A DNA stretch of 64,000 bases from an uncultured Candidatus Rokubacteria bacterium (GCA_963743355.1 CAVUPM010000001.1:1510451-1574450), one strand, 5' to 3'. Numbered from the stretch's first letter, positions 13,057 to 57,388 are shown. Notes: generated by a model from the letters alone, not told the origin. Numbers and translations: made by a program.

Positions 13057-13060
<4 letters not shown>

Positions 13061-32829: not shown

Positions 32830-32839
32830 CGGCGCCTCG

Positions 32840-33835: not shown

Positions 33836-33886
33836 CCTGGCGATAGGCGATTATGACTCCGCCCGTGCCGGCTTCATGCCAGAAAT

Positions 33887-36428: not shown

Positions 36429-36785
36429 TCAGGGCCGGCGCTCCTCCAGCTGCGTGGAGAGCAAGGCCAGCTCCTGAGCGAGGTTCTTCACCTGGACGGT
36501 GAGGCGCGAGATGATCACCGAGTAGTGCACGGCGATCGCGAACAGGAACAGCACGGCGCAGACCAGCAGCGTGTTGAGCGGGGTGACGGCGCCGACGATG
36601 TGGGTGATGGCGACCAGCAGCCGGTACCAGACCGCGAGCAGGACCATGACCCCGGCCGTGAGCAGCCACAGCCAGGAGTACTCCTCGCGCAATCGCCGGC
36701 GCCGGACCAGCTCGAGGACGAAGAGGAAGGCCAGAACCGAGGTCACCAGCGCGAACAGGGTCTGATGCAGGGTCAGCTCCAGCAT
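36429..36785 (-). CDS. DUF2304-family small membrane protein
   Basis: 118 aa, 3-4 TM helices and a C-terminal coiled coil. This family is typically paired with polyprenol-phosphate GT2 genes. Confidence 0.65.
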   Translation of the reverse strand: MLELTLHQTLFALVTSVLAFLFVLELVRRRRLREEYSWLWLLTAGVMVLLAVWYRLLVAITHIVGAVTPLNTLLVCAVLFLFAIAVHYSVIISRLTVQVKNLAQELALLSTQLEERRP

Positions 36786-36786
36786 G

Positions 36787-38253
36787 TCAGGCTCCCTTGC
36801 GGGCGGCGGGTTCGCGCCTCAGCGGCGCCAGCGCCACCGACAGCAGCATCTTGAACACGTAGTAGATCGGGCGCAGGCCCGCGTGCATCGAGCGGCCGCC
36901 GGCCCGCGGGTACATCCGCACGGGCACCTCGCGCAGCCGGAAGCCCGCCCGCCGCAGCGTGATGAGCACGTCGGCGTCGGCGTAGTCGGTCGGGTACCAC
37001 TCGGTGGCGACGAAGCGCACGACGTCGCCGCCAAACGCCCGGAAGCCCGAGGTGACGTCGGAGAACCGTACGCCCGTCAGCAGCCAGGCCAGCCAGCGGA
37101 AGAGGCCCATGCCGGCGCGGCGGAGCACGCCCGGGCGGTACGCCCCACCCCCCAGGAAGCGCGAGCCGATCGCCACGTCAGCCTCGCCGCGCTGGATCAC
37201 GGCCAGCAGCGCGGGGATGTCGGCCGGCTCATGCTGGCCGTCGGCGTCGAGGTGCACGACGCAGTCGTATCCCTCGCGGACGGCCAGCTTGTAGCCGGTC
37301 TGGGCGGCGACACCGGCGCCGAGGTTGAAGGGCAGGCGGACGACGCGGGCGCCGGCGGCGCGAGCGACATCCGCGGTGTCGTCGTCGGAGCCGTCGTCGA
37401 CGACCAGCATCGTGGCGTCGGGGACGGCCGCCCGCACCCCAGCCAGCACGCGGCCGACGCGCGCGGCCTCGTTGAAGGCGGGCACGAGGACGAGTGGCTT
37501 CATCGACCCGCCGTCCACGGCCGCCGTGTGCCGGGCGACCATCTCGCGCCACGGCACCGCGTGCGCATTCACGTGGGCGCCCGCCTCGGGCCCGGTGTTG
37601 GCCAGCAGGTCGAGCGCGGTGACGTAGGGCTCGAAAACGCCGTGCTGCTGCGGGTAGGGGGACAGATCGTAGTCCATGTACTCGACCGCGATCCCCGCCG
37701 ACTCGAACGCCTCGTGATCGAGATAGGCGAGCCCGCCGTGCCCGGTCAGGTAGCGGGTGGCGCCGAGGGCCTGGCAGACGGCCAGCACGCGCGCCGTGCC
37801 GGCGCCGCCGATGCCGAGCGCGGACGAGCGGAGCGTTTCCCGTCGGATGCCGATCAGCTCGGCCATCAGGCGGGTGGTGGCGATGGTCAGCTCGGCCAGC
37901 CGCGCCCAGATGCCGCCGGCCAGCATGGCCAGCACCGGCTCGACGCTGGCCGCGAACGGCGCCGGCCGCAGCGTGTGGCGGATGACCGCGCCGTGACGCG
38001 TCCGCCAGCGGCCGTCCTCGGCGATGTCCACCTCGTCGATGCGCTGGCCGAAGCGCCCGCTCTTGCGGACCGGCACGGTCAGCCAGGATCGCCCCTGGGC
38101 CGTCTTGAGCTGCACGCGCGCGAAGAAGCTGCGGCTCGTGTTCGAGGTGAACTGCACGTCGTCGTAGAAGACGAAGACGTCGGCTGCCTTCATGAGCGCG
38201 AAGTGGCCCCGCCACGGCAGGTAGCAGGGCTGGTTGATGGCGACGGCGGTCAC
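36787..38253 (-). CDS. WbqC-like domain fused in-frame to a GT2 polyprenol-phosphate glycosyltransferase (DPM1/ArnC-like). May be two coupled genes with an internal start near 37503.
   Basis: A 488-aa ORF with no intervening stop. Residues 1-250 are WbqC-family (INQPCYLPWRGHF). Residues 251-488 are GT2 (MKPLVLVPAFNE...VVDDGSDD...DADGQHEP). Confidence 0.7.
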   Translation of the reverse strand: MTAVAINQPCYLPWRGHFALMKAADVFVFYDDVQFTSNTSRSFFARVQLKTAQGRSWLTVPVRKSGRFGQRIDEVDIAEDGRWRTRHGAVIRHTLRPAPFAASVEPVLAMLAGGIWARLAELTIATTRLMAELIGIRRETLRSSALGIGGAGTARVLAVCQALGATRYLTGHGGLAYLDHEAFESAGIAVEYMDYDLSPYPQQHGVFEPYVTALDLLANTGPEAGAHVNAHAVPWREMVARHTAAVDGGSMKPLVLVPAFNEAARVGRVLAGVRAAVPDATMLVVDDGSDDDTADVARAAGARVVRLPFNLGAGVAAQTGYKLAVREGYDCVVHLDADGQHEPADIPALLAVIQRGEADVAIGSRFLGGGAYRPGVLRRAGMGLFRWLAWLLTGVRFSDVTSGFRAFGGDVVRFVATEWYPTDYADADVLITLRRAGFRLREVPVRMYPRAGGRSMHAGLRPIYYVFKMLLSVALAPLRREPAARKGA

Positions 38254-38788
38254 GCCAGGAAGACCGCCATGATCAGCACGTCCACGAAGTCCTGCCCGCG
38301 GGGTAGCTGGCGTCGCAGCACGCCCTCCGTCTCGAAACCGGCCCGCTGGTAGAGCGCGATGGCGCGCGGGTTGTCGCCGGCTACCTCCAGCAGCACCTTG
38401 CGCAGTCGCAACGCCGCCGCCCGGCGCAGCACCAGGCGCAGCGTCTCGTGCGCGATGCCCTGCCCCCAGCAGTCCTTCTCGCCGATCACCACGCCGAAGT
38501 AGGCGGTGCCACCTCGGCGGTCGATGCGCGTGAGGTTCGTCAGGCCCACCAGACGCCTCGACGCCTGCAGCTCGACGGCAAACGTGAGACGGCTGGGATC
38601 GCTCCCCACGGACACCGCGCGCAGCCAGCGCTGAGCCTCCCGGGTCCGGAACGGCGCGTCGCCCCAGAGCGCGCCGCGGCGCAGCTCCTCGTCGTGCCGC
38701 CAGGCGATCACGCGGGGCAGGTCGGTGCGGCGGAAGGGCCGCAGCCGCACCTGCTCGCCGGCGGCGGCGCGCCCATGCGGCACGCTCA
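38250..38788 (-). CDS. GNAT-family N-acetyltransferase
   Basis: About 179 aa from a GTG that overlaps the upstream stop (GTGA). VRLRPFRRTDLPRV...QRAGF acetyl-CoA-binding motif. Confidence 0.7.
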
Positions 38789-39974
38789 CGGCAGGAAGAA
38801 CCGGAGCCCGGGACGCTCGAGCAGTCCGGCCTGGGCGAGGATGTCGCGAGCGCGCCCGCGGTTCAGGCCGACGAGGATGTCGGTGACGGCCGGGGGAATC
38901 TGCCGCGGATGCACGATGGGCCGGCCCAGGTGCGTCTTGCCGGCCTTGAACGGGTTCTGATCGAGGAAGCAGCTGATGGCCGATCGCGCCGGCGCCGACC
39001 TGCAGCGCGAGGTAGCTGCCGAACACGCCGGCCCCGTAGACCGCCAGCGCCCCCTTGCCGTCGGGGCGCTCGTCCAGGAACGTGCCGAGCCGCGTGCCAC
39101 ACTCGACCCAGCGCGCGACCTCCGCGCGGATCGTGCCGGCATAGACGGCCGCCGTGTCGCCACCGCGCCGGGCCGGGCGCCCGGCGAAGCCGGGCTCGGG
39201 GACGGCCATCAGCGTGATCTGGCCGAGCTGATGGTGCTCGGAGGCGACGATCGGCCGCAGCCCGCAACGCTGCAGCAGCGTGCTGAGGCTCGGGGCCGAG
39301 AAGTGCGAGAGGTGGTCGGCCAGGAACGCGTCGATCGTGTTGGTGACGACGTTGGGGACGGTGAGGTACAGGAACCCGGTCGGCGCCAGCAGCGATGCGA
39401 GCCGGCCCAGCGTCACCGCGGGATCGATCAGGTGCTCGGCGACGAAGAACATCGTCACGAGGTCGAAGGGCCCGGCCGGCGTGGCCGGCCGCTCGAGTGG
39501 CGTCACCCGGAACCCGCCGGGGCCGGTGAGCGGCTCCACGAAGGCCCGGTAGCGTTCGGAGACGTCGCAACCAAACAGCTCCCAGCCCGGGTGCTGGCGC
39601 TGGAAGCGCGCCAGGAACGCGCCCTTGCCGCAGCCGAAGTCGAGCACGCGCCCCTTGGATGGCAGGTTCGCGAGCCGGCCGAGGTTGTCGAGCTGGATCT
39701 GCGAGCGGTAGATCGGCCGCCCGTCGGCGTCCAGGTCGTAGAGATCGTCGGCGTCCGCGCACTCGAGCAGCGAGTCGTACTCCCGATCGTAGTAGTCCGC
39801 GACGTCGGCCAGCCCGCCCTCGTCGCTCATGACGTGGGCGCAGCCCGGGCAGAGATAGATCTTGAGCCGCCCCCGCCGGAGCTTCGACTCGGAGGTCAGG
39901 GTCTCGTCGAGCGCCGAGGCGTGCAGCAGCTCGGGCTGGGGACGCGCGCAGGCGCGGCAGACGACCAGCATCGC
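38786..39974 (-). CDS. NDP-sugar C-methyltransferase (TcaB9-like: Zn ribbon + SAM MTase + C-terminal domain), copy 1. A frameshift near 39060 disrupts the reading frame.
   Basis: N-terminus MLVVCRACARPQ...CPGCAHV, motif I VLDFGCGKG. The C-terminus continues in the alternate frame (ORF 38786..39163: FLDQNPFKAGKTHLGRPIVHP). Confidence 0.7.
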
Positions 39975-39976
39975 GC

Positions 39977-40874
39977 TCAGTCGTCGGACGATCCGGCGAC
40001 CAGCTCCGGATGGTACCGGCGAAAGTCCACGCCCTCGTTCATGCCGCCCGCCCAGTCGTGACGGATCGCCGTCGGGTTGAGGAAGTCGAAGTAGCGGGCC
40101 TGCAACGTCCAGCGCGTGGCGGCGCTGTGGTTGGGTTGCGAGCGGTGCAGCAGGAACGTGTGGAACACGAGCGCGTCGCCGGCGGCGGCGGGCACCGACA
40201 CGGTCGGGTGGCGGGCGAGCAGCCCATCCAGCCCGTCGATCTCCAGCGCCTCGTTGGCGTTGCGGCGGGCGTTCAGCGCATCGCGCACGCGCACCGGTAG
40301 CGCGCCCAGGCGGTGAGAGCCCGGCGCCATGAGCAGGCAGCCGTTCCGCTCGCTGACGTCCACCAGCGGCAGCCACAACGTGACGGCGTTGTCGCTGGTG
40401 AGGTTGTACGGGTACTCCTGGTGCCACGGGGACAGGTACGTGTCCTCGTCGGGATGGTCCATGCGCACCCCGGTGCCACCCGGGTAGATGCCGGGCAGCC
40501 GGGTGCTCATGAGCTGGCGCATCACCGCCCACACGCGCGGCGCCGTGATGAGCCCGTACACGCTCGGCAGCTTACGCACGGCCTGGTAGATCCGGCCCAC
40601 GCGCTCGCGGTCGGCGCTGAGGAGCAGATCCAGCCCGCGATCGAACCGCGTCGAGCGCGGAGCCAGCCGGGTCGAGGCCACGCTCGCGCAGCACCAGGCC
40701 GAGGATCGTGGCGACCTCGTCCCGGAAGCGCGCCAGGAGGTCGGGAGCGGCAAAGCCGCGCAGCAGCAGGCAGCCGTGGGTTGCGTACGCGGTCAGCGCG
40801 GCGTCGGGTAGCGGCCGCTCGGCATCCCAGTCGGCGGTCACCGTGAAACGGCCGATCGCGGCGCCGGCGTCCAT
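39977..40874 (-). CDS. phytanoyl-CoA dioxygenase (PhyH) family Fe/2OG oxygenase. A frameshift near 40650 disrupts the reading frame.
   Basis: N-terminus (MDAGAAIGRFT...YATHGCLLLRGF) in one frame. The C-terminus (ORF 39977..40753: WHQEYPY...HTFLLHRSQPN) in another. Confidence 0.65.
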
Positions 40875-40879
40875 CAGGC

Positions 40880-41980
40880 GGCACCCAGATGCTCGCGGAT
40901 CGCGCCGGCGACCCGCTCGACGGTGGCGTCGCGGCATGTGCGTGTGCAGCGGCAGCGTCATGATCTCGCGCGTCACGCGCTCGGTCACGCTCAGGTCGCC
41001 GCGCCGGCACGTCTTGAAGTACGTGAAGTCCTGGGCCGGCAGGAAGTGGATGCCGGTCGCGATGCCGCGCCCGCGCAGGTGCTCGATGAGCCGCTCGCGC
41101 CGCGCGGCCGGCACGCGCACGGTGTAGATGAACGGCGAGACGTCCTCGAAGTCGGTCGCCGGGCAGCGCACGCCGGCGATGCCGGCCAGCCGGCGGTTGT
41201 AGAGCCGGCACGCCTGCCGGCGGCTGGCGATGAACTCGTCCACGCGCGTGAGCTGCGAGAGCCCGACGGCTGCGTTGATGTTGGTCAGGTGATACCGGAA
41301 GCCCTGGGAGACGACGTCGTACTCCCACGCGCGGCTGTTCTTGTACCGCGCGAGTGTCTCGCGGTCGATGCCGAGGAAGCGCCAGTGGCGCAGCCGCTCC
41401 AGCGCGGCGGCGTCGCCCACCACCACGGCGCCGCCGTCGATCGAGGTGATCACCTTGACCGGGTCGAAGCTGAAGCACGTCACGTCGCCGAAGCTGCCGA
41501 TCGGCCCGGCCGTCGACGCGCGTGCCGAAGGCGTGGGTGGCGTCCTCCACGATGCGCAGGCGATGGTGCTCGGCCAGCGCGAATAGCTCCTTGACGCGGC
41601 CGGCGACGCCGCCGAAGTGCAGCGGCACGATCGCCTTCGTGCGCGGGCCGATCAGGGCGGCGGCCTTGTCGGGATCGAGCCCCAGCGTCGACGTCGTCCA
41701 CGTCGCACAGCACCGGCGCGGCGCCGGTCGCGACGATCGCCTGGTGGTCGGCGACGAAGTTGAAGGCGGACGTGATCACCTCGTCGCCGGGGCCGACCCC
41801 GGCGGCCAGCAGGCCGAGGTGGAGCGCGGAGGTGCCGGTGTTGGTGGCCAGCACGAAGCGGCCGTCGAGGCCGAGGAACCGCGCGATGCCTTCCTCGAAA
41901 GCCTGGGTGACCGCGCCCATCCCCAGCCAGCCGGCGTGCAGGGCGTCGACGACGGCCTTGATCGTGTCGACGCCGATCAC
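40880..41980 (-). CDS. DegT/DnrJ/EryC1-family PLP-dependent sugar aminotransferase. At least 2 frameshifts disrupt the reading frame.
   Basis: N-terminus in ORF 41480..41980 (TNTGTSALHLGLLAAGVGPGDEVITSAFNFVA). The middle is in ORF 40522..41628 (RIVEDATHAFG). The C-terminus is in ORF 40572..41483 (FSFDPVKVITSIDGGAVV). Confidence 0.7.
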
Positions 41981-42017
41981 GGGCTGGAAGACCGGGATCG
42001 CGGGCTGACCGTGTCAG

Positions 42018-42755
42018 TCACCGGTGCACCGGAGGTAGCCGTCGGGCGCGCACGTGAGCAGCAGCTTGCCGGCGATGCGCGCGTCGATCTCGAAGCGATC
42101 GGTGGTCTTCAGGAACTGCCACACCGCAGTCTTGGGGTTGTTGCCCTTGCCCCAGCGCCGGCCGGCGAAGAGCTCGTCCGGCAGGTCCTCGATGAGCGTG
42201 TCGAAGACGATCGAGGTAGCTGCCGCGGGTGACCAGCGGCGCGTAGAGCTCCAGCTCGCGCAGCACGTGGGCGTGGGTGTGATCGGAGTCGAGCGTCACG
42301 AGCACGCGCCGGTGGCCCCGCGCCAGCTGCGCGCACCGCGGCGACCACGCTCGGCGTCGGTCGAGGAGCCCTCGATCAGCCGGATCCGCTTGGCGAGCGG
42401 GTGGGCCTCGATCTCACGCCGGTTGTGGGCGCGGATGTCGACATCCACGCCGACGACGAGGCCGTCGCCGCCGAGCAGCTCGAGCAGCGAGGCCGAGTGG
42501 ATCAGCGAGCCGCCGTGGGCGATGCCGGTCTCCACGACGAGGTCGGGCCGCACCTGCCAGACGATCTCCTGCACGGCGAGCAGGTCTTGCGGGAGCTGGA
42601 TGACCGGCCGCCCGAGCCAGGCTGAAGTTGTACGTGTACCTGTGGCGCGTGATCTCCGCCAGCCAGGCGCGGGACAGCGCCTGGATGCCGCCGTCAGCCA
42701 TGAGCCGGTCGACGTTGGTCTTCACCTCGGCGGAGAACCGCTCGATCTCGTCCAT
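42018..42755 (-). CDS. CmcI (cephalosporin hydroxylase)-family methyltransferase, possibly a sugar O-methyltransferase. At least 2 frameshifts disrupt the reading frame.
   Basis: Pieces in three ORFs: YTYNFS (42414..42755), QEIVWQVRPDLVVETGIAHGGSLIHSASLLELLG (42296..42574) and LVTLDSDHTHAHVLRELELYAPLVTRGSY (42018..42305). Confidence 0.65.
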
Positions 42756-42780
42756 GTCTTCGGCGGCTAGGACCGCCTTT

Positions 42781-44003
42781 TCACGTTACCGCGGCGGGCC
42801 GTGGAATCCGCCAACCATTTTTACCAACGTTTCCCATCGCTTCGAGGTAGCAGTTGGGCTCAGCCCGGGGCCGTGGCGGCGTAGACCTCGAGCAGCTCGG
42901 GACCTGGGCCGCCCAGTCGTACCGCTCCCGAACGAGCGCCCGGGCGGTGGCGCCCAGCGCGGCACAGGCCCGGGCGTCGGCGTGCAGGGCCCGGATGGCC
43001 GCGACCATCTCCCGGGCGGTGTCGACCAGCCGCAGGTGGTGCCCGTCCTCGACGTCGAGTCCCTCGGCGGCCTTGGCAGTACACACGACGGGAAGGCCGG
43101 CGGCGAAGTACTCCAGAAGCTTCAGCCGAGTCCCGCTGCCGTGGCTGATCGGCGCGATGGCAACCCGGGTCGAGGCCAGGAGGTCCGCCGTCGAGGCGAC
43201 GCGGCCCAGGAAGCGCACGTTGGGCGGAATCCGGCGCGGTCGATACGGAGCGTCTCCCACGATGTGGAACTGCAGGTCCCGCAGCGCCGGCGCGAGGTCG
43301 CGGCAGATCGCCTCGACCGCGAAGTAGTTCGGCGGATAGCGCGTGGTGCCCACGAACACGACGGGGCCGCCCCCGGCGAGCGCCGCGGCCGGGCGTGGCA
43401 CGAAGCGACGGACCTCGACGCAGTTCGGCACCACGCTCGATTTCGCGGCGATGCCCGGCAGAGGCGTCTCGGCCCGCTCGCGATCCAGCGCCGAACAGAA
43501 CAGGACGTGCGCGGCCGCGCCTGCCCAGCAGGCGATCTCCATCCGGGCCTGGCGCCGGCGGGTCACGCGGTAGTAGACGCGGTCGCGCAACGAGGCCTGC
43601 GGAAACGCGGTCATGTCCTGGTAGACGTTGTGCGCGTTGAGCACGAACGGTCCCAGGCCCGCGCGGCGGGCCGCCTCGAAGAGCAGCGGGGACTCCAGCT
43701 GAATCAGCGTGCGCTCGCGGTCGAGCCGGGCCGGGAAGCGGAATCCCAGCGTGGGCGCCAGGAGCATCGCGGCGAGGTGCCGGGCGCGGCGAAGCCCGTC
43801 GGCCGGCCGGGCGATGTGTACGACCGCGAGACCGGCCGGGGGCTGGAGCGGAGCCGGGGACGTCGAGAAGCGCAGACGGTGACGGCGCCCAGGTGCGGCC
43901 GCACCGAGGACGCCATACCGAAGGTGCGCGCCGCCGTGCCGTTGGCCGGCGGGATCACGGTGTCGGGTGCGAGACAGACGAGCTCACGTTCGGCAAGCGT
44001 CAT
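42781..44003 (-). CDS. glycosyltransferase family 4 (GT-B). A frameshift disrupts the reading frame.
   Basis: C-terminal domain in ORF 42781..43767 (ISHGSGTRLKLLEYFAAGLPVV). The N-terminus appears in ORF 43704..44525 from MTLAERELVCL. Confidence 0.65.
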
Positions 44004-44914
44004 CACCGGGTGGCCGACCCTCGCCCGGCCCGACCGGCTCGGAGCGCCAGGCGTTCGAGCCCGCGGCCGAGGCGATGCGCGAGGTGACCGTAGCGTGGAT
44101 AGCGGTACTGGCAATACATCACGTGATGGACGACGTTCAGGCGCAGCAAGCGGTAGAGCACCGCCGGCGAGCGCGGGGTTCGCGCGTCGGACAACAGCGC
44201 GCGTGTGAACGGGGCGAGCGGCAGCAGCCGGGGGAGGGCGGTCGGGAGCGTCGTGTCGAGCAGCGCGTGTACTTCGTCGCGATGATTCGCCTCGCGCACG
44301 AGCCCCACCCCCTCGAGCTGCCGTGGGTGCCGGCCATGAGCGACCGCGCGGAAATGACCCAGTCGAACGCGTGGTACCCGAACGGCGGCATCGTCGCCTG
44401 TAGGATTGGGCGCCGGTGCAGACCGTACAGGCGGGAGTTGTCCATCGGGTCGTCGAGAAAGCGGCAGAGATTGTCGGCCGGGGTGCCGAGCAACGCGAAC
44501 GTCCCGCCCGCCGCCCGCCGCACACCGTCGGCCTCCAGAAAATCGACGCGCGGTACGCAGCAGACGACCTCAGGGCGGGCGTCGAGCACGTCGACGCAGG
44601 CCGCCAGCAGCGAGGGCAGAGCGTAGTCGTCGCCGGACAGCCACATGAAGTACTCCGCCCGGGCCGCCTGGAGCACGACGCGGAAGTTGTCGTAGGCCGA
44701 GGTCGTTCGTGGCTGCCGGATCAGACGGATGCGCGAATCCACGGACGCGTAGCGCCGGCAGATCTCCCCGGTGCCGTCGGTCGACGCGTTGTCGGAGACG
44801 ACGAGCTCGAAGTCCGTGAGCGTCTGGCCGAGCACCGATTCGATCGCGCGGGCGACGGTGCGCTCCAGGTTGAAGACGGGCAGGCCGATCGAGACCCGCG
44901 GCACGGCGCTCACG
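44003..44914 (-). CDS. glycosyltransferase family 2. A frameshift near 44200-44300 disrupts the reading frame.
   Basis: GTG start overlapping the Wzx stop. PRVSIGLPVFNLERTVARAIESVLGQTLTDFELVVSDNASTDGT GT2 signature. Confidence 0.65.
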
Positions 44915-46406
44915 CCAGTCTCGCCCGTGCCGCCGCCAGCAGGCGTCGGCGCACCGTCGCCGTCGCCGCCCCGGCGGCCAGCGTCGTCAGCAGCGCGGTG
45001 GCCCCCATCCAGGCGATCCGGGCGGCCGATGATAGCACCTCCGGCATCACCACCCGAGCCGTTGCCGTCAGGACGGCGACGGCCAGCATGGCCGCCCCCA
45101 CGTGGCCATACCAGCGCGCCAGCTCGCCGGTGAGCACGCGCCGGTGCATCCGCGTCATGAGGACGAGCAGGATGCTGAGGTTGAGGCCGATCCAGCCGAG
45201 CGCGGCGCCCACGCCGCCTCCGGCGAGCGCCAGCGCCACGGTCACGGGCACCATGACGACGACGGAGACGGCGTTGATCCGCGCGGCGAGCGCCGACCAT
45301 CCGAACGCGAGCTGGACGACGTGGGGCACCTGGATCAGCGCGTTCAGCACGGTGCCGACCGCCCGCAGCCCGAGCACGGGCGCGGCATGATGGACGAGCT
45401 CCGGAGCCCCCGTCCACAGGTCGAGGATCTGGTCGGGGAAGAAGACGAGCAGCCCGGCCAGCGGTAGCACGAGGACAGCGACGAGCTGGGAGAAGAAGTG
45501 ATACTCCTCGGCGATGTCCTTGCCGCCCGCGCGGTGGGCGAGCTGGCTGAATCGAGGATACACCGCGGTGGTGACGGGCTGCACGAGCTGCCCCAGCGCC
45601 GCCGCCACGCCGACCGCAACCGTGTAGTACCCGAACTGGGCGAGGGGCAGGATCGCGCTCAGGATCACCTGGTCCAACGACATGAGCGCCAAGCCGAACA
45701 CCATCGTCGCGCCGACGCCGCCCGCGAACTTGAGCGCCGGCCGGATCGTCTGGAATCGGATGCGGCCGCCGCGGGCGGCGGCCGGCAAGGACCGGCTGAG
45801 CGCCACGCTCGCCACCGCCGCCTCGAGGAAGAGGACGAGGAGCTGGGCGACGAGAAAGACCGTGATGCTGCGTTCCACAAGTAGCAGCGCGGCGACGCTG
45901 ACGAGCGCGCGGGTCGCGATCCCTCCGACCTGGATGAGGTTGGCCAGACGCTGTCGTTGCAGACCGTTGAGCCCGGCCAGCGAGAAGCCGCGCGCGACCA
46001 GCGCCGGCAGGGCGGCGCCCATGAGCGCCAGGGCGCCACGCACCTCCGCCACCGAGAGCGTCGAGAACGTGAGCCAGCGGGTGGCGATGGCCGGCGCCAC
46101 TACGGCGAACAGTCCGCCGGCGACGAGGCCTAGTCCCCAGCACGTGGCGCGGAGCGTCGCGGCCACGTCGGCGAAGCGCGCCGCCTCCGAGGGTGTGACG
46201 CGCGCGGCCTCCCGGTTCAGCGTGGCGCTGAGGCCGAGGTCGAGTGCGAGCCCCAGGACCATCACCGTCGTGAAGAGCCCGACCAGCCCGTAGGTCTCGG
46301 CCCCGAGGAGACGGAGATAGACCGGCACCACGGCGAGGAACACCGCCGTACCGAGACCGGAGCCGACGACGTTGGCGAGGATGTTGCGCGAGACGGTCGT
46401 CACGCC
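44910..46406 (-). CDS. Wzx-like polysaccharide-unit flippase (MOP superfamily)
   Basis: About 498 aa from GTG (VTTVSRNILANVVGSG). About 12-14 TM helices. The upstream portion of the 697-aa ORF is junk. Confidence 0.7.
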   Translation of the reverse strand, partial: GVTTVSRNILANVVGSGLGTAVFLAVVPVYLRLLGAETYGLVGLFTTVMVLGLALDLGLSATLNREAARVTPSEAARFADVAATLRATCWGLGLVAGGLFAVVAPAIATRWLTFSTLSVAEVRGALALMGAALPALVARGFSLAGLNGLQRQRLANLIQVGGIATRALVSVAALLLVERSITVFLVAQLLVLFLEAAVASVALSRSLPAAARGGRIRFQTIRPALKFAGGVGATMVFGLALMSLDQVILSAILPLAQFGYYTVAVGVAAALGQLVQPVTTAVYPRFSQLAHRAGGKDIAEEYHFFSQLVAVLVLPLAGLLVFFPDQILDLWTGAPELVHHAAPVLGLRAVGTVLNALIQVPHVVQLAFGWSALAARINAVSVVVMVPVTVALALAGGGVGAALGWIGLNLSILLVLMTRMHRRVLTGELARWYGHVGAAMLAVAVLTATARVVMPEVLSSAARIAWMGATALLTTLAAGAATATVRRRLLAAARARLA

Positions 46407-47068
46407 GGCTTGCGTCCGAGCACGACCGCGGCATCGTCGATGGCGTGGGCGTCGTCGTCGATGTACTCGATCTTCGCGTCGAAGCCCGCCGTGCGCAGCC
46501 GGTCGAGGATGTCCCGGCCGTACGTGCGAAACGCGAGCACCTTCCGCGTCCTCGCAGCCGGTCGTCGTGGTACTCGGGCTCGACCAGGTGAACGATGGCA
46601 CCGTCGTGCAGGCGGGCCCGTTCGAGCGTGGCGGTGGCGTCTCCGGAGCGGTACCGTGAAGACCAGGAAGCCCCCGGGGCGCAGGACGCGGTGAATTTCG
46701 GCGAAGGCGCGGCGATCGTCGGGGACGTGCTCGAAGACCTCCGTGCTGGTGACGAGGTCGAACGTGGCGTCGCCGTAGGTGAGGCCCTGAACGTCCTGGC
46801 ACTGGACGCCGTCGCGGAACCGCCCCGCCTCCATGCCGTCGAACAGCTCGGACACGGTGACGCGGGAGAAGGTCCGCCGCAGGTGGTGGCAGAGCGCCCC
46901 GCGCGAGGACAGCTCGTAGACGTGCGTACCCCGACCGAGCCGGAGCCGCTGCAGGACGCGGCCGACGGCGCGGTGGCGGAACGTCGACAGGCATCGCACG
47001 CACCGCCGTCCCGCCGGACCCGGGTGAAGGCGGAGGATGGGGAAGCCACAGAGATTACAGGTCGGCAC
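46400..47068 (-). CDS. Zn-ribbon class I SAM-dependent methyltransferase. Two compensating frameshifts at about 46540-46640 scramble roughly 35 internal residues.
   Basis: CNLCGF...CVRC N-terminus, FEHVPDD motif, C-terminus VLAFRTYGRDILDRL. The mid-section is better read in the alternate frame (LHDGAIVHLVEPEYHDD). Confidence 0.6.
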   Translation of the reverse strand: MPTCNLCGFPILRLHPGPAGRRCVRCLSTFRHRAVGRVLQRLRLGRGTHVYELSSRGALCHHLRRTFSRVTVSELFDGMEAGRFRDGVQCQDVQGLTYGDATFDLVTSTEVFEHVPDDRRAFAEIHRVLRPGGFLVFTVPLRRRHRHARTGPPARRCHRSPGRARVPRRPAARTRKVLAFRTYGRDILDRLRTAGFDAKIEYIDDDAHAIDDAAVVLGRKPA

Positions 47069-48332
47069 GCGGCATCCGGGCGGCGTCGATGATTCGCGGC
47101 GTCGGCACCGGCACGATGAAGGCCCCGCCCTTGCGCAGATAGTCGGCCTGCTGGGCGACGATCTCGTCGGCCAGGTTCCAGGGCAGCAGCAGCGTGAAGT
47201 CCGGCATCTCGCGCGCGAGATCCTCGGGCGGCCGGATCGGCACCCGCACGCCCGGGATCAGGCGGCCCTGCTTGTGCGGGCTGCGGTCCACGGTGAACTC
47301 GAGCAGGTCGGTCCCGATGCCGCACGCGTTGAGCAGCACGGTGGCCTTGGCCGGCGCTCCGTAGGCGGCCAGCCGCCGGCCCTCGCCGCGAAGCTTCCGA
47401 AGCATTTGCAGGAGATCGTGGCACAGCGTGGCAACCTCGCGGTTGAAGCTGCGGTAGCGCGCGGCACTGGTCAGGCCGGCGGCCGCCTCGTCGCGGCGCA
47501 GCCGCTCCACGGCGGACGCGACGGGGCGGGCGCCGGCGTGCTGGACGAAGATGCGCAGCGATTCGCCGTGCACCGGCTGGAGATCCACGTCGAAGATCTC
47601 GAGGCGCGCCCGCGCCGCCAGTCCGGCCACGGCCGCCAGCGAGTAGTAGAAGACGTGCTCGTGGTAGATCGTGTCGAACGCGGTCCGCTCGAGCGTGTCG
47701 CCGAGGTACGGGAACTCGAAGACGGCGGCGCCGTCCAGCGTCAGGCAGGCCGCGACGGCGTCGAAGAATCCGTTGATGGCCGGCACGTGGGCGAGCACGT
47801 TGTTACCGACGATCACCTCCGCCCGGCCGAAGCTGCCGACGATCTCCTCCACGGCCTCGGGGCCGAAGAAGCGGGTCAGCGTGGGAATGCCACGCGCCGT
47901 GGCCACGGCCGCCACGTTGCGGGCGGGCTCCACGCCGAGCACCGGCACACCGCGGGCCTGGAAGAACTGCAGCAGGTACCCGTCGTTGCTGGCGATCTCC
48001 AGCACGCGCCGCGTGGACGAGAGCGCGAAGCGCTCGATCAGCGTGTCGGCCATGGCCCGCGCGTGGGCGAGGGAGTGATCGGAGAAGGACGTGAAGTAGA
48101 GGTACTCGCCGAACAGGGCCTCGGGCGGCGCGGTCTCGGTCAGCTGGACGAGGTGGCAGCCGGCGCAGTAGGCGACGGCGAGCGGGAAGCGCGGCTCCGG
48201 CCGCGCGGTGTCCTCGGGCCGCACGAGCGCATTGGCCAGCGGCTGCGCGCCGAGATCGAGGAACGGGTCGGCGAGGGCGGCGGCGCAGCCGAGGCAGGCG
48301 CGCCCGCTCACGACTCCTGCGCGGCCTGCCAT
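47055..48332 (-). CDS. NDP-sugar C-methyltransferase (TcaB9-like), copy 2, intact
   Basis: About 425 aa. Zn ribbon (CLGC...CAGC), SAM motif (VLEIASNDGY) and a C-terminal Methyltransf_14-like domain. The start is ATG 48332, or a GTG near 48311 overlapping the rfbG stop. Confidence 0.8.
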   Translation of the reverse strand: MAGRAGVVSGRACLGCAAALADPFLDLGAQPLANALVRPEDTARPEPRFPLAVAYCAGCHLVQLTETAPPEALFGEYLYFTSFSDHSLAHARAMADTLIERFALSSTRRVLEIASNDGYLLQFFQARGVPVLGVEPARNVAAVATARGIPTLTRFFGPEAVEEIVGSFGRAEVIVGNNVLAHVPAINGFFDAVAACLTLDGAAVFEFPYLGDTLERTAFDTIYHEHVFYYSLAAVAGLAARARLEIFDVDLQPVHGESLRIFVQHAGARPVASAVERLRRDEAAAGLTSAARYRSFNREVATLCHDLLQMLRKLRGEGRRLAAYGAPAKATVLLNACGIGTDLLEFTVDRSPHKQGRLIPGVRVPIRPPEDLAREMPDFTLLLPWNLADEIVAQQADYLRKGGAFIVPVPTPRIIDAARMPRADL

Positions 48333-49390
48333 CGCCGCTGGTAGCGCCGGACCTGCTCCACGCTGAGGTCGTACATGGCCCGCTCGGAGGCCGCCCCGGC
48401 AGCGGCGCGATACCAGCCAACGGTGAGCTCCACCGCTTCCTTGATCGTGAGCCCCGGCTGCCAGCCCAGGCGCGTGCGCGCCCTGCTCCAGTCCAGGCGC
48501 AGGAGGCCGGCCTCGGGCGGCGCGTCGCCCTCCGGCTTCGACTCCCAGCGCGCGCCGTCCCACTGGCCGACGATCAGATCGGCGAGCGTGGCCACGGAGA
48601 CGGCGTCGGCGGCGTGCGGGCCGAAGTTCCAGGCGCCCGCGAACGCCGCGCTGCCCGCCAGGCGCTCGGCAAGGCGCAGGTAGCCGCCGAGCGGCTCCAG
48701 GACGTGCTCCCAGGGACGGATCGCCGCCGCGTTCCGCACGCGGATCGGCTCGCCCCGCCCGAGCGCGCGCATCGCGTCCGGCACCAGCCGGTCGGGCGCC
48801 CAGTCGCCGCCGCCGATGACGTTGCCGGCGCGCACGGTCGCCACCCGCGGTCCGGCGGCCGCGAAGAACGAGCGACGGTAGGCGGCGGTGATCAGCTCGG
48901 CGGCGGCCTTGCTGGCGCTGTACGGATCGTGGCCCCCGAGCGGATCGTCCTCGCGGTAGCCCTCGAGGCGTTCGACGTTCTCGTAGCACTTGTCGCTGGT
49001 GACCACGACGACGGCCTCGACGGAGGGGGTGTGGCGGACCGCCTCCAGCAGTGTCGCCGTGCCCAGCACGTTGACCGAGATCGTCTCCAGCGGCGCCTTG
49101 TAGGACAGGCGCACGATCGGCTGGGCGGCCAGGTGGAACACGACGCGCGGCTGCGCCGCCGCCAGGGCCGCCTGCAGGGCGGCGGCGTCGCGCACGTCGG
49201 CGAAGCGCGTGGTCAGGCGCTCGGCGAGGCCGCAGCGGGCGTAGTACGACGGCGTGGTGGGCGGGGTCAGGCCGTAGCCGGTGACGCGGGCGCCGAGATC
49301 CAGCAGCCACGTCGCCAGCCACCCGCCCTTGAAGCCGGTGTGCCCGGTGACGAAGACGGACCGGTCACGCCAGAACTCACGCGCGACCAT
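48308..49390 (-). CDS. rfbG: CDP-glucose 4,6-dehydratase
   Basis: 360 aa. VFVTGHTGFKGGWL Rossmann motif and YSASKAA catalytic motif. Short-chain dehydrogenase extended family. Confidence 0.88.
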   Translation of the reverse strand: MVAREFWRDRSVFVTGHTGFKGGWLATWLLDLGARVTGYGLTPPTTPSYYARCGLAERLTTRFADVRDAAALQAALAAAQPRVVFHLAAQPIVRLSYKAPLETISVNVLGTATLLEAVRHTPSVEAVVVVTSDKCYENVERLEGYREDDPLGGHDPYSASKAAAELITAAYRRSFFAAAGPRVATVRAGNVIGGGDWAPDRLVPDAMRALGRGEPIRVRNAAAIRPWEHVLEPLGGYLRLAERLAGSAAFAGAWNFGPHAADAVSVATLADLIVGQWDGARWESKPEGDAPPEAGLLRLDWSRARTRLGWQPGLTIKEAVELTVGWYRAAAGAASERAMYDLSVEQVRRYQRRWQAAQES

Positions 49391-49393
49391 CGG

Positions 49394-50167
49394 TCACCGC
49401 CACACGGCCCAGGCGGCCTTGTCCTGCCGCCACATCTCGTTCAGGAGGTCCATCTCGCGGGGTGTGTCCATGCACTGCCAGAAGCCGTGGTGCTGATAGA
49501 CGGCGAGCTGCTTCATGCCGGTGAGCTTCATCAAGAGCGACTGCTCCAGGTTCTCCTCGTCACCAGAGATGAGATCGAGCACCCCGCGTTCGAACACGAA
49601 GAAGCCGCCGTTGATCCAGCCCCCGTGGACCTGCGGTTTCTCCTGAAACACCTGGACCATGTTGTTGTCGATCACGACCTCGCCGAAGCGCGAGGAGGGA
49701 CGCACGGCGGTGAGGGTGGCCAGCTTGCCGTGATGGCGATGGAAGGCCACCAGCTGGTCGAGATCGACGTCGGCGACGCCGTCGCCGTACGTCACCATGA
49801 ATTGCGGGCCGTCGAGATAGCGCGCGACCCGGCCGAGCCGGCCCGCCGTGAGCGTCGCCTCGCCGGTCTCGGCCAGCGTCACCCGCCAGCCCGCCTCGCC
49901 GTGCGGCGTGTGCACCTGGATCTCGGGCGAGCCGAGCGTGACGGTCACGTCGCGGTGGCGGACCTCGTAGTTCAGGAAGTAGTCGCGGATGACGTCGCCC
50001 CGGTAGCCCAGGCAGATCACGAAGTCGCGGTGGCCGTAGTGGGCGTAGGTCTTCATGATGTGCCAGAGGATGGGACGGGCGCCGATCGCCACCATGGGCT
50101 TGGGACGGAACTCCGTCTCCTCCCGCAGCCGAGTGCCCAGCCCTCCGGCGAGAAGCACGACTTTCAT
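49394..50167 (-). CDS. rfbF: glucose-1-phosphate cytidylyltransferase
   Basis: 257 aa. MKVVLLAGGLGTRLREETEFRPKPMV is canonical. Confidence 0.92.
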   Translation of the reverse strand: MKVVLLAGGLGTRLREETEFRPKPMVAIGARPILWHIMKTYAHYGHRDFVICLGYRGDVIRDYFLNYEVRHRDVTVTLGSPEIQVHTPHGEAGWRVTLAETGEATLTAGRLGRVARYLDGPQFMVTYGDGVADVDLDQLVAFHRHHGKLATLTAVRPSSRFGEVVIDNNMVQVFQEKPQVHGGWINGGFFVFERGVLDLISGDEENLEQSLLMKLTGMKQLAVYQHHGFWQCMDTPREMDLLNEMWRQDKAAWAVWR

Positions 50168-50211
50168 GAGGGGTCCTTCGACTATAGTAAGTGTGGCGCG
50201 CGATCTGTCGG

Positions 50212-52538: not shown

Positions 52539-53048
52539 TCACGGCGTGGCGGCGGCGCCCAGCTCGGCGGCTTCCAGCTCGCTCACGATCCTGACGCCAT
52601 CGCCGGCGCGCAGGCGACCCTCGGCCAGCACGCGCGCGTACACGCGGCTCCAGCCGGGATGACGCTTCTGCGAGACACGACCGAACTCGCGGCCGGCGAA
52701 TATCGGCGCGATCTTGAAGCAGGGGCTCGTGTACCGCGTCACCTGCAGCAGCACGCGCTCGCCGAGGAGCAGGTAGGCCTCCGGCACCACCTGCGCCCAG
52801 TCGACGCCCTCGGTGGTGATGTTCTCGCCGATCGCGCCGGGCGTGATCGCGTGGCCCTCGGCCGCCAGGGCCCGGATCGCCTCCACCGAGAACAGGCACA
52901 CGGCGCGCTCGGGGCCCCCGTGGTGCTCCTCGTCGCGATGGGCGTCGTCCTCGAGGCCGAGCCGGGTCACGCGCGCCTCCGCGACCGCGCGCTTGGGGAC
53001 GCCGCCGGTGGAGACGCTCAGCTGAACGATCCGGCCGGTGGTGGCCAT
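52539..53048 (-). CDS. MOSC domain-containing protein
   Basis: About 170 aa from MATTGRIVQLSVSTGG. GENITTEG MOSC motif. Confidence 0.7.
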   Translation of the reverse strand: MATTGRIVQLSVSTGGVPKRAVAEARVTRLGLEDDAHRDEEHHGGPERAVCLFSVEAIRALAAEGHAITPGAIGENITTEGVDWAQVVPEAYLLLGERVLLQVTRYTSPCFKIAPIFAGREFGRVSQKRHPGWSRVYARVLAEGRLRAGDGVRIVSELEAAELGAAATP

Positions 53049-53050
53049 GC

Positions 53051-53515: not shown

Positions 53516-53522
53516 TCCTCTC

Positions 53523-53555
53523 TTGATAGGGGGGAGCGATCGCCGCTCCCCCCTA
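53523..53555. terminator. 12-bp-stem GC hairpin TAGGGGGGAGCG-ATCG-CGCTCCCCCCTA downstream of livF
   Basis: Direct reading. Confidence 0.4.
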
Positions 53556-53610
53556 GGCCCCCCAGCGGGGACCCGCGAGGTTGTTCCGGTCCCGTTCGAC
53601 CCCGACGTTG

Positions 53611-55086
<1,476 letters not shown>

Positions 55087-55090
<4 letters not shown>

Positions 55091-57287: not shown

Positions 57288-57296
57288 CGGAGGCTT

Positions 57297-57372: not shown

Positions 57373-57388
57373 GCCCGGCGAGCGAGTG

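Follow-up and report, generated by a model that had tools for sequence, protein, structure and literature searches.

A tightly packed Rokubacteria operon predicted to build and export a C-methyl-branched amino sugar from CDP-glucose

We analysed a 64,000-nucleotide stretch of DNA (the window) from an uncultured soil Rokubacteria/Methylomirabilota genome, which carries on its minus strand, from 50167 to 36429, a tightly packed glycan operon of 15 genes. Starting from CDP-glucose, the operon probably produces a single, heavily modified 6-deoxyhexose that is C-methyl-branched, aminated and acylated, and exports it to the cell surface. Pfam and NCBIfam searches placed every function named in a first-pass annotation on this strand and in the order given there; its count of 14 genes becomes 15, WbqC and GT2 being separate genes. 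The operon and its neighbours, in the direction of transcription of the operon, are as follows.

51467..52528, minus strand: GT2 glycosyltransferase that bounds the glycan locus on the right, syntenic in relatives (Glyco_tranf_2_3, 58.7 bits)
50191..51384, plus strand: divergent GT4 glycosyltransferase, 23 nt from the rfbF start (Glyco_trans_1_4, 94.5 bits)
49394..50167, minus strand: rfbF, glucose-1-phosphate cytidylyltransferase, 257 aa (TIGR02623 equivalog, full length, 351.9 bits against a cut-off of 300.25)
48308..49390, minus strand: rfbG, CDP-glucose 4,6-dehydratase, 360 aa (TIGR02622 equivalog, 449.1 bits against a cut-off of 278.45)
47055..48311, minus strand: CMT1, TcaB9/MtmC/KijD1-type sugar 3-C-methyltransferase, 418 aa (Methyltransf_13, 72; Methyltransf_23, 52; Methyltransf_14, 189 bits)
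46400..47068, minus strand: small SAM methyltransferase, 222 aa as read, whose N-terminus holds a CxxC...CxxC zinc ribbon (Methyltransf_11, 60.7 bits)
44910..46403, minus strand: Wzx-type MOP flippase, 497 aa (Polysacc_synt, 47.5 bits; Polysacc_synt_3; MatE)
44137..44913, minus strand: GT2 glycosyltransferase, C-terminus uncertain (Glycos_transf_2, 87.6 bits)
42781..44149, minus strand: GT4 glycosyltransferase, probable TTG start at 44149 (Glyco_trans_1_4, 69.3 bits; Glyco_transf_4 match from profile position 56)
42014..42755, minus strand: CmcI/rhamnosyl-O-methyltransferase-like methyltransferase, 245 aa with four inserted bases removed (RMNT_CmcI in two ORF pieces, 132 and 72 bits)
40874..41980, minus strand: DegT-family lysine-type sugar aminotransferase, predicted C-4, 367 aa with three inserted bases removed (DegT_DnrJ_EryC1 over three frames)
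39977..40874, minus strand: PhyH-family Fe(II)/2-oxoglutarate dioxygenase, 298 aa with one inserted base removed (PhyH, 83 bits)
38786..39971, minus strand: MT2, distant relative of sugar C-methyltransferases, 394 aa with one inserted base removed (Methyltransf_23, 81.7 bits)
38250..38789, minus strand: GNAT N-acetyltransferase, 179 aa, GTGA overlap on each side (Acetyltransf_3, 82.1 bits; weak PseH similarity)
37500..38253, minus strand: WbqC-family protein, predicted ligase acylating the sugar amine, 250 aa with one inserted base removed
36787..37503, minus strand: GT2 of the polyprenyl/dolichyl-phosphate sugar synthase type, 238 aa (NCBIfam scores below)
36429..36785, minus strand: DUF2304 small membrane protein, 118 aa, about three hydrophobic helices (PF10066, 83.3 bits)
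33887..36418, plus strand: membrane glycosyltransferase of the GT-C fold, convergent with the operon, 843 aa, with a periplasmic domain and TPR repeats at the C-terminus

All junctions are tight, but the description of nearly all of them as 4-nt overlaps was overstated: GTGA/ATGA overlaps occur at six of the 14 (rfbG/C-MT, where the CMT1 start codon is GTG; MT/wzx and wzx/GT2, at either end of the flippase gene; MT2/GNAT; GNAT/WbqC; WbqC/GT2). The others comprise one 14-nt overlap, one 1-nt overlap in which the DegT stop and the PhyH ATG share a base (TGATG), spacers of 1, 3, 5, 25 and about 33 nt, and the GT2/GT4 junction, of uncertain extent. The WbqC-GT2 fusion reported previously is an artefact of one extra base at about 37509, just upstream of an ordinary ATGA stop/start overlap, and relatives L003 and L005 carry two genes with the same overlap. 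MT2 and GNAT likewise read as one ORF (38250-40532) purely through a base inserted near 38988; the true end of MT2 is at 38786. The locus keeps the same gene order in other Rokubacteria MAGs, the divergent GT4 keeps its position in L001, L003, L004 and L005, and past the edge GT2 lie MOSC, MaoC and Liv-type ABC transporter genes.

The proposed entry through CDP-glucose was supported, with both RfbF and RfbG exceeding their curated NCBIfam equivalog cut-offs. RfbG carries TSDK at residues 131-134 and YSASK at 157; [ST]DK...Yx3K marks CDP-glucose dehydratases, and the dTDP type has [ST]DE (2022 review, PMC8987622). On the rmlA_long model rfbF scored only 42.6 bits. Because of these equivalog-level matches and the CDP-type SDK...YxxxK fingerprint, the cytidylyltransferase does not group with dTDP-specific RmlA-like enzymes. 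RfbF would thus supply CDP-glucose, and RfbG would convert it to CDP-4-keto-6-deoxy-D-glucose.

CMT1 aligned over residues 5-409 with the solved sugar 3-C-methyltransferases MtmC (4rv9, E 9e-94), KijD1 (5t64, E 1e-86) and TcaB9 (3ndi, E 4.5e-82), and its homologs are therefore sugar methyltransferases. This full-length homology, together with a position beside rfbF and rfbG that is conserved between phyla, argues strongly that CMT1 would methylate the 4-keto sugar at C-3. The first-pass annotation had two TcaB9-like C-methyltransferases, a description that holds for CMT1; MT2 has in common with it only the architecture, an N-terminal CxxC...CxxC (CRAC...CPGC in the corrected ORF) followed by a class-I methyltransferase domain. 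The C-terminal domain of MT2 was 28% identical to that of CMT1 (E 2e-5), and the L005 orthologue of MT2 scored 22.8 bits on Methyltransf_14, under the 23.5 cut-off, and matched MtmC with E 2e-6. MT2, the zinc-ribbon methyltransferase and the CmcI-like O-methyltransferase may together add up to three methyl groups, and PhyH one hydroxyl; among solved proteins, PhyH comes closest to PtlH and to SnoK and SnoN, which act on sugars.

The corrected DegT ORF is open and contains the catalytic-lysine motif FSFDPVK. Its top NCBIfam scores were for PseC, ArnB, LegC and WecE, and the L005 orthologue was closest to TlmJ, ArnB and perosamine synthase. All of the closest characterised relatives are C-4 aminotransferases, and DegT is accordingly predicted to aminate C-4. 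Assignment as an E1 dehydrase was rejected: on the RfbH model, where the cut-off is 423, DegT reached 145 bits, the aminotransferase lysine is kept, and E1 (3bb8) ranked far lower.

The resulting amine is probably the target of WbqC, adding an acyl or aminoacyl group, a step absent from the earlier reading. The WbqC fold is of the BshC/class-I tRNA-synthetase type, which suggests an amino-acid ligase for the sugar amine; its consensus is QPxYLPWxGxF, and no obvious HIGH motif was found in it. A DegT gene was present at eight of eight WbqC loci examined. In the set of 150 best representatives, the longest six WbqC-family proteins (>400 aa) comprised four fused to GNAT and two with WbqC matches only, and a GT2 fusion occurred in none of the six. 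From the fold, the constant presence of DegT and the natural GNAT-WbqC fusions, WbqC and GNAT would acylate the amine, most likely with an amino acid, and that amino acid would then be N-acetylated. The variant in L001 and L004 retains GNAT without DegT and WbqC, so the GNAT target may differ from the 4-amino group. To our knowledge, the ligase activity of BshC itself has never been reconstituted.

For export and transfer, Wzx, GT2 and GT4 would act on the sugar. The best NCBIfam matches of the second GT2 (36787..37503) were PpgS (106 bits), dolichyl-phosphate hexose transferase (89) and AglJ (81), each under its cut-off. Together with DUF2304 and the neighbouring GT-C enzyme, this PpgS-like GT2 indicates a lipid-phosphate delivery route, also missing from the first-pass annotation: GT2 and DUF2304 would place the sugar on polyprenyl phosphate, and the convergent GT-C/TPR enzyme may transfer it, outside the membrane, to an acceptor in the envelope. 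PpgS/Rv3632/Rv3779 provides a precedent for such delivery (PMC3485146). No initiating phosphoglycosyltransferase, Wzy or Wzz was found among the coding ORFs scanned between 17 and 58 kb.

Judged by gene content, the core gene set is widespread in several distant bacterial lineages. We collected 71 loci from many phyla with the CMT1 clade; an rfbF-like gene (at least 40% identity, within 6 kb) accompanied it in 60, an rfbG-like gene in 36, and the contiguous rfbF-rfbG-C-MT trio in 27. This recurrence (60/71) supports the link between the C-methyltransferase and CDP entry that had been proposed from the window, although as a genomic observation the link is not new: the trio is annotated on Sinorhizobium meliloti pSymB as SMb21416-18 (PMC4053727), and in Synechocystis the operon of rfbF (slr0983) includes slr1610, a putative methyltransferase (bioRxiv 10.1101/2025.03.27.645739). 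Loci L081 (Cupriavidus), L082, L083 and L084 combine WbqC, rfbF, rfbG, C-MT and DegT; rfbF passed TIGR02623 in all four and rfbG its cut-off in three. Among these four, PhyH is found in all but L083 and a CmcI-like gene in all but L082; L084 further carries a GNAT, and L083 a formyltransferase. In Ralstonia wenshanensis 56D2 a flagellar locus contains rfbF-rfbG-rfbC-DegT-PhyH-MT-GNAT-WbqC-GT2 (28-52% identity), with the order from DegT to GT2 as in the Rokubacteria operon.

The frameshifts mentioned in the earlier reading are present, as at least ten single-base insertions relative to relatives, in WbqC (37509), MT2 (38988), PhyH (40651), DegT (41691, 41504, 40932) and CmcI (42622, 42352, 42329, 42213; against L003 and L005), and as further frame changes near 43872, 44170-44330 and 46541-46645. 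Those at 43872-44330 are other than simple insertions: the L005 homologue of GT4 is split over two frames at about 43872, and the L003 homologue of GT2 carries on in another frame from about 44330. A compensated frame excursion, seen against L003 and L004, scrambles about 35 residues (~46645-46541) of the zinc-ribbon methyltransferase. These breaks could be read as real, the operon being a pseudogene cluster in which GT2, GT4, CmcI, DegT, PhyH, MT2 and WbqC have decayed and the decorated sugar is no longer made. The 37.5-44.3 kb stretch has at least 12 frame changes, whereas tblastn with relatives detected none across some 17 kb of flanking genes in synteny, and the broken stretch is a cassette that varies between related genomes. 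However, all ten cleanly mapped events are +1 insertions, nonsense mutations are absent, and deleting the ten bases restores perfect ORFs in all five genes. The frame pieces are as identical to the intact L003/L005 orthologues (62-93%, mostly 77-88%) as intact neighbours are, with GC3 >0.9 throughout, and secY, adk, rpsE (S5) and rplF/rplR (L6/L18) elsewhere in the window are broken as well, as is the methyltransferase at 46.5 kb. The 1.84 Mb source contig is typical of a long-read assembly, which the genome probably is. Decay is therefore quite improbable; because the essential secY and adk are also broken, the breaks in the operon are sequencing or assembly errors, and the operon is thus probably intact in the organism.

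Alternatively, two sugars may be involved, with rfbF and rfbG feeding a simpler CDP-sugar and the C-methyltransferase, aminotransferase and tailoring enzymes acting on a sugar that is made elsewhere in the genome and carried by dTDP, GDP or UDP. All solved CMT1 relatives use dTDP-sugars, the top-ranking relatives of DegT take UDP-, GDP- or dTDP-sugars, and sequence does not reveal which nucleotide CMT1, DegT or the later enzymes prefer. Yet the locus has no second nucleotidyltransferase or 4,6-dehydratase, the operon has no reductase, epimerase or E1/E3 to complete another CDP-sugar, the trio is contiguous in the 27 loci, and rfbF scored above its cut-off beside every WbqC/DegT module examined in detail, leaving this arrangement improbable. 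A possible but rather unlikely variant keeps the sugar chemistry unchanged and makes the GT-C/TPR protein an oligosaccharyltransferase that transfers a Wzx-flipped lipid-linked oligosaccharide containing the sugar to proteins. An invariant Y-W-D-D in its periplasmic domain recalls the WWDYG motif, TPR domains frequently bind protein substrates, Wzy, Wzz and WaaL are absent from the locus, and the Ralstonia and Cupriavidus modules lie in flagellar loci adjoining SunS-like or GT41-type glycosyltransferases. On the other hand, the model of the periplasmic domain has low confidence, GT-C enzymes with lipid-monophosphate donors (Pmt, ArnT, AftA/B) score almost equally, and the conserved trio of PpgS-like GT2, DUF2304 and GT-C suits monosaccharide decoration. 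A classical CDP-3,6-dideoxyhexose O-antigen locus (abequose, tyvelose or ascarylose-type) of the Salmonella/Yersinia kind would share the entry enzymes and a DegT family that includes E1/RfbH, but is highly improbable given the aminotransferase character of DegT described above.

The single decorated CDP-sugar remains our preferred product. We found no published description of the product of the core gene set, and know of no described CDP-activated route to a 4-amino-4,6-dideoxy-3-C-methylhexose, the predicted skeleton; sugars of this type, such as kansosamine and sibirosamine, have already been described. In a Pfam search the Rokubacteria operon lacked the E3 reductase, 4-reductase and epimerase, in contrast to the Salmonella and Yersinia dideoxyhexose loci, with which it has rfbF and rfbG in common.

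The window has a G + C content of about 71%. Third-position GC profiling combined with profile searches traced a minus-strand gene run without break from 50167 to 36429, recovering the entire gene order and all function assignments of the first-pass annotation. The genes are listed in the order in which they are read; lengths are those after correction of the frame breaks.

Genes of the operon (minus strand, 50167 down to 36429)
1, rfbF (glucose-1-phosphate cytidylyltransferase)
2, rfbG (CDP-glucose 4,6-dehydratase)
3, 47055-48311, TcaB9-type C-methyltransferase, CMT1
4, small zinc-ribbon SAM methyltransferase
5, Wzx
6, GT2
7, GT4
8, CmcI-like methyltransferase, 245 aa
9, DegT, 367 aa
10, PhyH dioxygenase, 298 aa
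11, 38786-39971, second large methyltransferase, MT2, 394 aa
12, GNAT
13, WbqC, 250 aa
14, small GT2
15, DUF2304

The operon comprises 15 genes and not the 14 first counted, with WbqC and the small GT2 being separate. The packing is tight, as originally described, but the 4-nt GTGA/ATGA overlaps said to occur at nearly all junctions were found at six only; the remaining junctions show one 14-nt overlap, one 1-nt overlap and spacers of 1 to ~33 nt, these classes leaving out the GT2/GT4 boundary with its frame changes at 43870-44330. The WbqC-GT2 fusion reported at first pass was an artefact: two close relatives have two genes with an ATGA overlap, and one extra base ~6 nt upstream of this overlap runs the WbqC frame into GT2 in the window. 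A natural fusion of the two was ruled out, none of the six long WbqC-family proteins scanned carrying a GT2. A natural MT2-GNAT fusion was also ruled out, because the shared ORF arises from an inserted base near 38988. Scanning the window for tRNAs and against Rfam (gathering threshold) gave no match. A search of 36.0-52.7 kb for promoters and terminators returned none of the former and three terminator-like sites against 3.4 expected, and is uninformative because the organism is GC-rich and non-model.

Alignment with relatives located single extra bases at 37509, 38988, 40651, 40932, 41504, 41691, 42213, 42329, 42352 and 42622, and deletion of these ten bases restored uninterrupted ORFs. Additional frame changes occur near 43872 and at 44170-44330, in GT4 and GT2, and in the small methyltransferase a compensated frame excursion leaves some 35 residues garbled. 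Frame breaks were also present in several essential genes elsewhere in the window, as follows.

Frame-broken essential genes
8630-13060, plus strand, ribosomal-protein/secY/adk operon
10952-12034 and 11995-12405, plus strand, ORFs in two frames over which secY is split
12602-13057, plus strand, ORF in which the N-terminal part of adk is missing
within 8630-13060, plus strand, S5 truncated, and L6 and L18 in one stop-to-stop ORF

The breaks were read as assembly errors and not as gene decay. The ten clean events are insertions without exception, and no nonsense mutation occurs; the frame pieces retain 62-93% identity to intact orthologues (most at 77-88%); and the source contig, at 1.84 Mb, has a size typical of long-read assembly. 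Pseudogenisation was mostly rejected because the frame-broken secY, adk, S5, L6 and L18 indicate general indel errors in the assembly. The in-frame TGA at 42296 was ruled out as a nonsense mutation, since it sits out of frame between two insertions. Compared with the syntenic flanks, 37.5-44.3 kb has a higher density of errors, and this stretch is exactly the part that varies between related genomes; the dense errors there could plausibly stem from read support that is low or mixed. The inserted bases at 38988, 41504 and 42213 (also 37509, 40651 and 41691) adjoin CGATCG or TCGA-containing sequence, and a systematic base-calling error at such sites, perhaps methylation-related, may be involved.

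The entry into the pathway is of the CDP type, as first proposed. RfbF is a TIGR02623 equivalog (351.9 bits, cut-off 300.25) scoring 42.6 bits with the rmlA model, and RfbG is a TIGR02622 equivalog (449.1 bits, cut-off 278.45) scoring far below the cut-off of the dTDP-glucose dehydratase model (96.9 versus 365 bits). RfbG carries TSDK...YSASK, corresponding to the [ST]DK...Yx3K fingerprint; CDP-glucose dehydratases have an Asp-Lys fingerprint, whereas the dTDP type has Asp-Glu (2022 review, PMC8987622).

CMT1 has all three family domains above the Pfam cut-offs (zinc-binding N-domain, class-I SAM domain and Methyltransf_14), and its residues 5-409 align with MtmC (4rv9), KijD1 (5t64) and TcaB9 (3ndi) with E values of 1e-82 to 1e-94. 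This homology, together with the position of rfbG directly upstream, is consistent with an NDP-4-keto-6-deoxyhexose as the substrate that CMT1 would C-methylate. The reading of the locus as a CDP-linked, C-methylated sugar operon is well supported by the entry-enzyme models, the fingerprint and the CMT1 homology. Among 71 loci from many phyla with a CMT1 relative and room upstream, an rfbF-like gene (at least 40% identity) was located within 6 kb of that relative at 60, an rfbG-like gene at 36, the contiguous trio rfbF-rfbG-C-methyltransferase at 27 and also a CmcI-like gene at 21. The pairing recurs outside the window, which strengthens the functional link. The trio is annotated as SMb21416-18 on S. 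meliloti pSymB (PMC4053727), and in Synechocystis rfbF shares an operon with the putative methyltransferase slr1610 (bioRxiv 10.1101/2025.03.27.645739). Our literature search found no paper characterising a C-methyltransferase on a CDP-sugar.

Two TcaB9-like C-methyltransferases had been described; CMT1 proved to be one over its full length, while MT2 is only a remote member that shares the family architecture and not the scores. MT2 has CxxC...CxxC and Methyltransf_23, scores 22.8 with Methyltransf_14 (cut-off 23.5), has no detectable Methyltransf_13, matches MtmC at E 2e-6, and aligns to CMT1 in the C-domain only (28% identity, E 2e-5). Among the nearest solved relatives of the PhyH dioxygenase are SnoK and SnoN, whose substrates are amino-sugar moieties.

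TlmJ, ArnB and perosamine synthase come closest to the DegT orthologue, whose best NCBIfam matches are PseC, ArnB, LegC and WecE, all of these being C-4 aminotransferases. The RfbH (E1) model gave 145 bits (cut-off 423), E1 structures ranked far below, and the catalytic lysine of FSFDPVK is kept in the corrected window DegT; this ruled out an E1-type dehydrase. On the same evidence a 3,6-dideoxy pathway is excluded, and DegT is predicted to aminate C-4. No E3-like reductase ORF was found among the locus profile-search hits. In a full-text literature search, neither a CDP-4-amino sugar nor CDP-viosamine came up in any paper.

WbqC matched PF08889 with 209 bits (cut-off 21.3), and its corrected ORF is standalone, as are nearly all its homologues (220-260 aa). 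The family comprises ~10,900 representative clusters at E ≤ 1e-10. Among the six longest WbqC-family proteins scanned, four are natural GNAT-WbqC or WbqC-GNAT fusions (P0285, P0334, P0351 and P0383), and two (P0241 and P0293) have WbqC matches only, more than one each, possibly as tandem copies. A DegT-family aminotransferase was present at all eight WbqC loci examined from other organisms. Five of the eight also carry rfbF and a 4,6-dehydratase, which exceeds the RfbG cut-off at the Cupriavidus locus (L081) and at two further distant loci (L082 and L084) and is annotated as rfbG in Ralstonia; four of these five have a TcaB9-type C-methyltransferase, the Ralstonia locus being the exception. 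The WbqC family is presumably named after the E. coli O121 / Shigella dysenteriae 7 cluster, whose O-unit contains Qui4N N-acylated by N-acetylglycine. In the E. coli O121 O-antigen, 4-amino-4,6-dideoxyglucose is acylated with N-acetylglycine (PMC3210612). The constant presence of DegT, the conserved gene order, the GNAT fusions and the O121 N-acetylglycyl group suggest that WbqC may put an amino acid on the 4-amino group and that GNAT would then acetylate that amino acid; as caveats, WbqC shows no HIGH-type motif and GNAT persists in a cassette variant without DegT. The function of WbqC is still called uncharacterised (PMC5532660), our literature search found it described only in this way, and Qui4NGlyAc gave no match.

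The closest CMT1 relatives (74-82% identity) belong to Candidatus Rokubacteria/Methylomirabilota MAGs, with which the window is collinear at ~34.0-58.7 kb, mostly at 70-89% DNA identity; synteny stops near 34067. Three of these genomes (L003, L005 and L007) have the same gene set. Two others (L001 and L004) keep rfbF, rfbG, CMT1, Wzx, GT2, GNAT, the small GT2 and DUF2304, but opposite window 38764-44065 three genes (14457-17310 in L001) replace GT4, DegT, PhyH, MT2 and WbqC. The alternative cassette encodes an SDR reductase-like protein, a distant TcaB9-like methyltransferase (Methyltransf_14, 30.4 bits) and a different CmcI-like protein. The swap, which would turn a 4-amino into a 4-hydroxy sugar, looks like strain-level switching. 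On the left, past the convergent GT-C/TPR gene, the flank holds unrelated genes: LysE, hydantoinase, sigma-54 activator, anthranilate synthase and the ribosomal protein operon. On the right, a divergent GT4 and a GT2 precede MOSC, MaoC and transporter genes.

Flanking features
32762-33856 (~1.1 kb), between the LysE-type and GT-C genes, long overlapping ORFs on both strands; the plus-strand ORF has no Pfam match, and no strong codon-position signal was seen
33887-36418, plus strand, convergent GT-C/TPR protein (843 aa), a GT-C-fold membrane glycosyltransferase with a periplasmic domain and C-terminal TPR repeats
50168-50190, just 23 nt between the rfbF ATG (50167, minus strand) and the start of the divergent GT4 (50191, plus strand), so that either both promoters must reach into coding sequence or the annotated starts are incorrect; no sigma-70-like site was found
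52581-58588, minus strand, MOSC-domain gene, MaoC-like dehydratase and five-gene Liv-type branched-chain amino-acid ABC transporter, apparently intact and syntenic with relatives

The same module was located in cultured bacteria. Ralstonia wenshanensis 56D2 (L085, p56D2, 1377015-1386235) has the DegT-PhyH-methyltransferase-GNAT-WbqC-GT2 order of the operon, with rfbF and rfbG; its biosynthetic genes are 28-52% identical to those of the operon, and its methyltransferase has 391 aa. It lies between fliE/fliF and fliT, fliS, fliD and flagellin. The Cupriavidus sp. 2TAF22 module also lies in a flagellar locus, with fliE/fliF on one side and other flagellar genes on the other, and has a C-methyltransferase and a CmcI-like gene. 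The adjoining genes encode a SunS-like glycosyltransferase in Ralstonia and a TPR-GT41 glycosyltransferase in Cupriavidus. Both cassettes carry an RmlC-like epimerase that is absent from the operon, their glycosyltransferases differ, and the Ralstonia cassette lacks the TcaB9-like C-methyltransferase. The flagellar neighbours suggest that these cassettes glycosylate flagellin, with a glycan that is undescribed in the cultured strains.

The last genes of the operon point to delivery through a lipid phosphate. The best hits of the small GT2 are PpgS, dolichyl-phosphate hexose transferase and AglJ (81-106 bits, all below equivalog cut-offs), all of which make lipid-monophosphate sugars. DUF2304 starts 1 nt after the small GT2. 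A small membrane partner beside the GT2 and a GT-C-fold transferase are both present, and small GT2, DUF2304 and GT-C are kept together in the relatives with the swapped cassette. In Azospirillum, WbqC adjoins a PgfS/ArnC-like GT2 and an ArnF-like protein. The operon also contains Wzx, a feature of Wzx/Wzy-dependent loci; the coding ORFs scanned at 17-58 kb held no Wzy, no Wzz and no initiating phosphoglycosyltransferase, and these could lie elsewhere in the genome. The GT-C may use a lipid monophosphate as the donor of one sugar, or may transfer a Wzx-flipped oligosaccharide onto protein. Residues 526-538 of the GT-C/TPR protein (33887-36418, plus strand) form an invariant block, WALVYWDDVALVY, in the periplasmic domain; this block is reminiscent of the WWDYG motif found in oligosaccharyltransferases, the best structural matches of the protein, and lies in a domain modelled at low confidence.

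The operon is predicted to make a CDP-4-acylamido-4,6-dideoxy-3-C-methylhexose that bears additional methyl and hydroxyl groups. The module to which the locus belongs is widespread, conserved and uncharacterised in biochemical terms, and is present here as an error-laden copy in an uncultured organism. A broader proposal, which is tentative and judged rather improbable, is that the module (rfbF, rfbG, DegT, PhyH, MT2-type methyltransferase, GNAT and WbqC, with or without TcaB9-type C-methyltransferase and CmcI-like O-methyltransferase) might make undescribed CDP-activated 4-(N-acetyl-aminoacyl)amino-4,6-dideoxyhexoses, here 3-C-methylated, with WbqC as a BshC-like ligase, and that the sugar might be placed on flagellin in Ralstonia and Cupriavidus and on a Rokubacteria envelope acceptor via a new TPR-bearing GT-C.

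The main value lies in two predictions, CDP-based amino/branched sugars and WbqC as a sugar-amine ligase. Beyond 3,6-dideoxyhexoses and a few related sugars, hardly any CDP-activated hexoses are known, and the operon and the shared module predict a whole CDP-sugar branch with C-methylation, C-4 amination and aminoacylation. A concrete function is suggested for the large WbqC family, hitherto without an assigned role; if true, PF08889 gets its first function, that of a BshC-like ligase acting on a sugar amine. Both predictions are testable in cultured R. wenshanensis 56D2 and Cupriavidus sp. 2TAF22. Rokubacteria are, as far as we know, an abundant soil phylum without cultured members; in related genomes a reductase cassette takes the place of the aminotransferase/dioxygenase/WbqC cassette, a swap that offers an initial view of surface-glycan variation in the phylum. 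The general logic, from nucleotide-sugar tailoring to export, is ordinary and touches no long-standing open question.

Among known systems, the Salmonella and Yersinia CDP-3,6-dideoxyhexose pathways have the first two enzymes (rfbF/ddhA and rfbG/ddhB) and CDP-4-keto-6-deoxy-D-glucose in common with the operon. The latter is without the E1 3-dehydrase, E3 reductase, 4-reductase and epimerase, and instead has, besides its SAM C-methyltransferase and three other methyltransferases, an aminotransferase of the C-4 type, a dioxygenase and an acylation pair; a comparison with these clusters, proposed at first pass, turned up no E1 or E3 features in the operon. CDP-glucose is among the starting nucleotide sugars of a 2022 review, which names CDP-tyvelose, CDP-abequose and CDP-paratose (PMC8987622). 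The dTDP-sugar 3-C-methyltransferases TcaB9, KijD1 and MtmC share with CMT1 the three-domain architecture and a full-length alignment, but belong to dTDP natural-product (antibiotic) clusters, whereas CMT1 belongs to an operon for a cell-envelope glycan, in which it accompanies CDP entry enzymes. TylC3 and EryBIII are further dTDP-sugar 3-C-methyltransferases of antibiotic pathways.

WbqC-containing O-antigen clusters combine a DegT-type aminotransferase, WbqC and an acetyltransferase, as does the operon, and the N-acetylglycyl group on the 4-amino-4,6-dideoxyhexose of O121 is the chemistry predicted here for WbqC and GNAT. To our knowledge, the O121 pathway is dTDP-based and has no C-methylation, dioxygenase or CmcI-like enzyme. 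WbqC has no detectable sequence similarity to the cysteine ligases BshC (bacillithiol) and MshC (mycothiol) or to class-I aminoacyl-tRNA synthetase cores; no HIGH or KMSKS motif was seen in it, and, with only ~250 residues, it has neither an anticodon domain nor extra domains. For delivery, M. tuberculosis PpgS (Rv3631), Rv3632 and Rv3779 comprise a polyprenyl-phosphate amino-sugar GT2, a small membrane partner and a GT-C that acts in sugar transfer outside the membrane (PMC3485146). The PpgS-like small GT2, DUF2304 and GT-C of the window parallel this system and ArnC/ArnE-F/ArnT. With 106 bits, where the PpgS cut-off is 370, the small GT2 is no equivalog, and the donor sugar differs; unlike the PpgS and Arn systems, the GT-C has TPR repeats, and it finds no match among the Pfam GT-C families.
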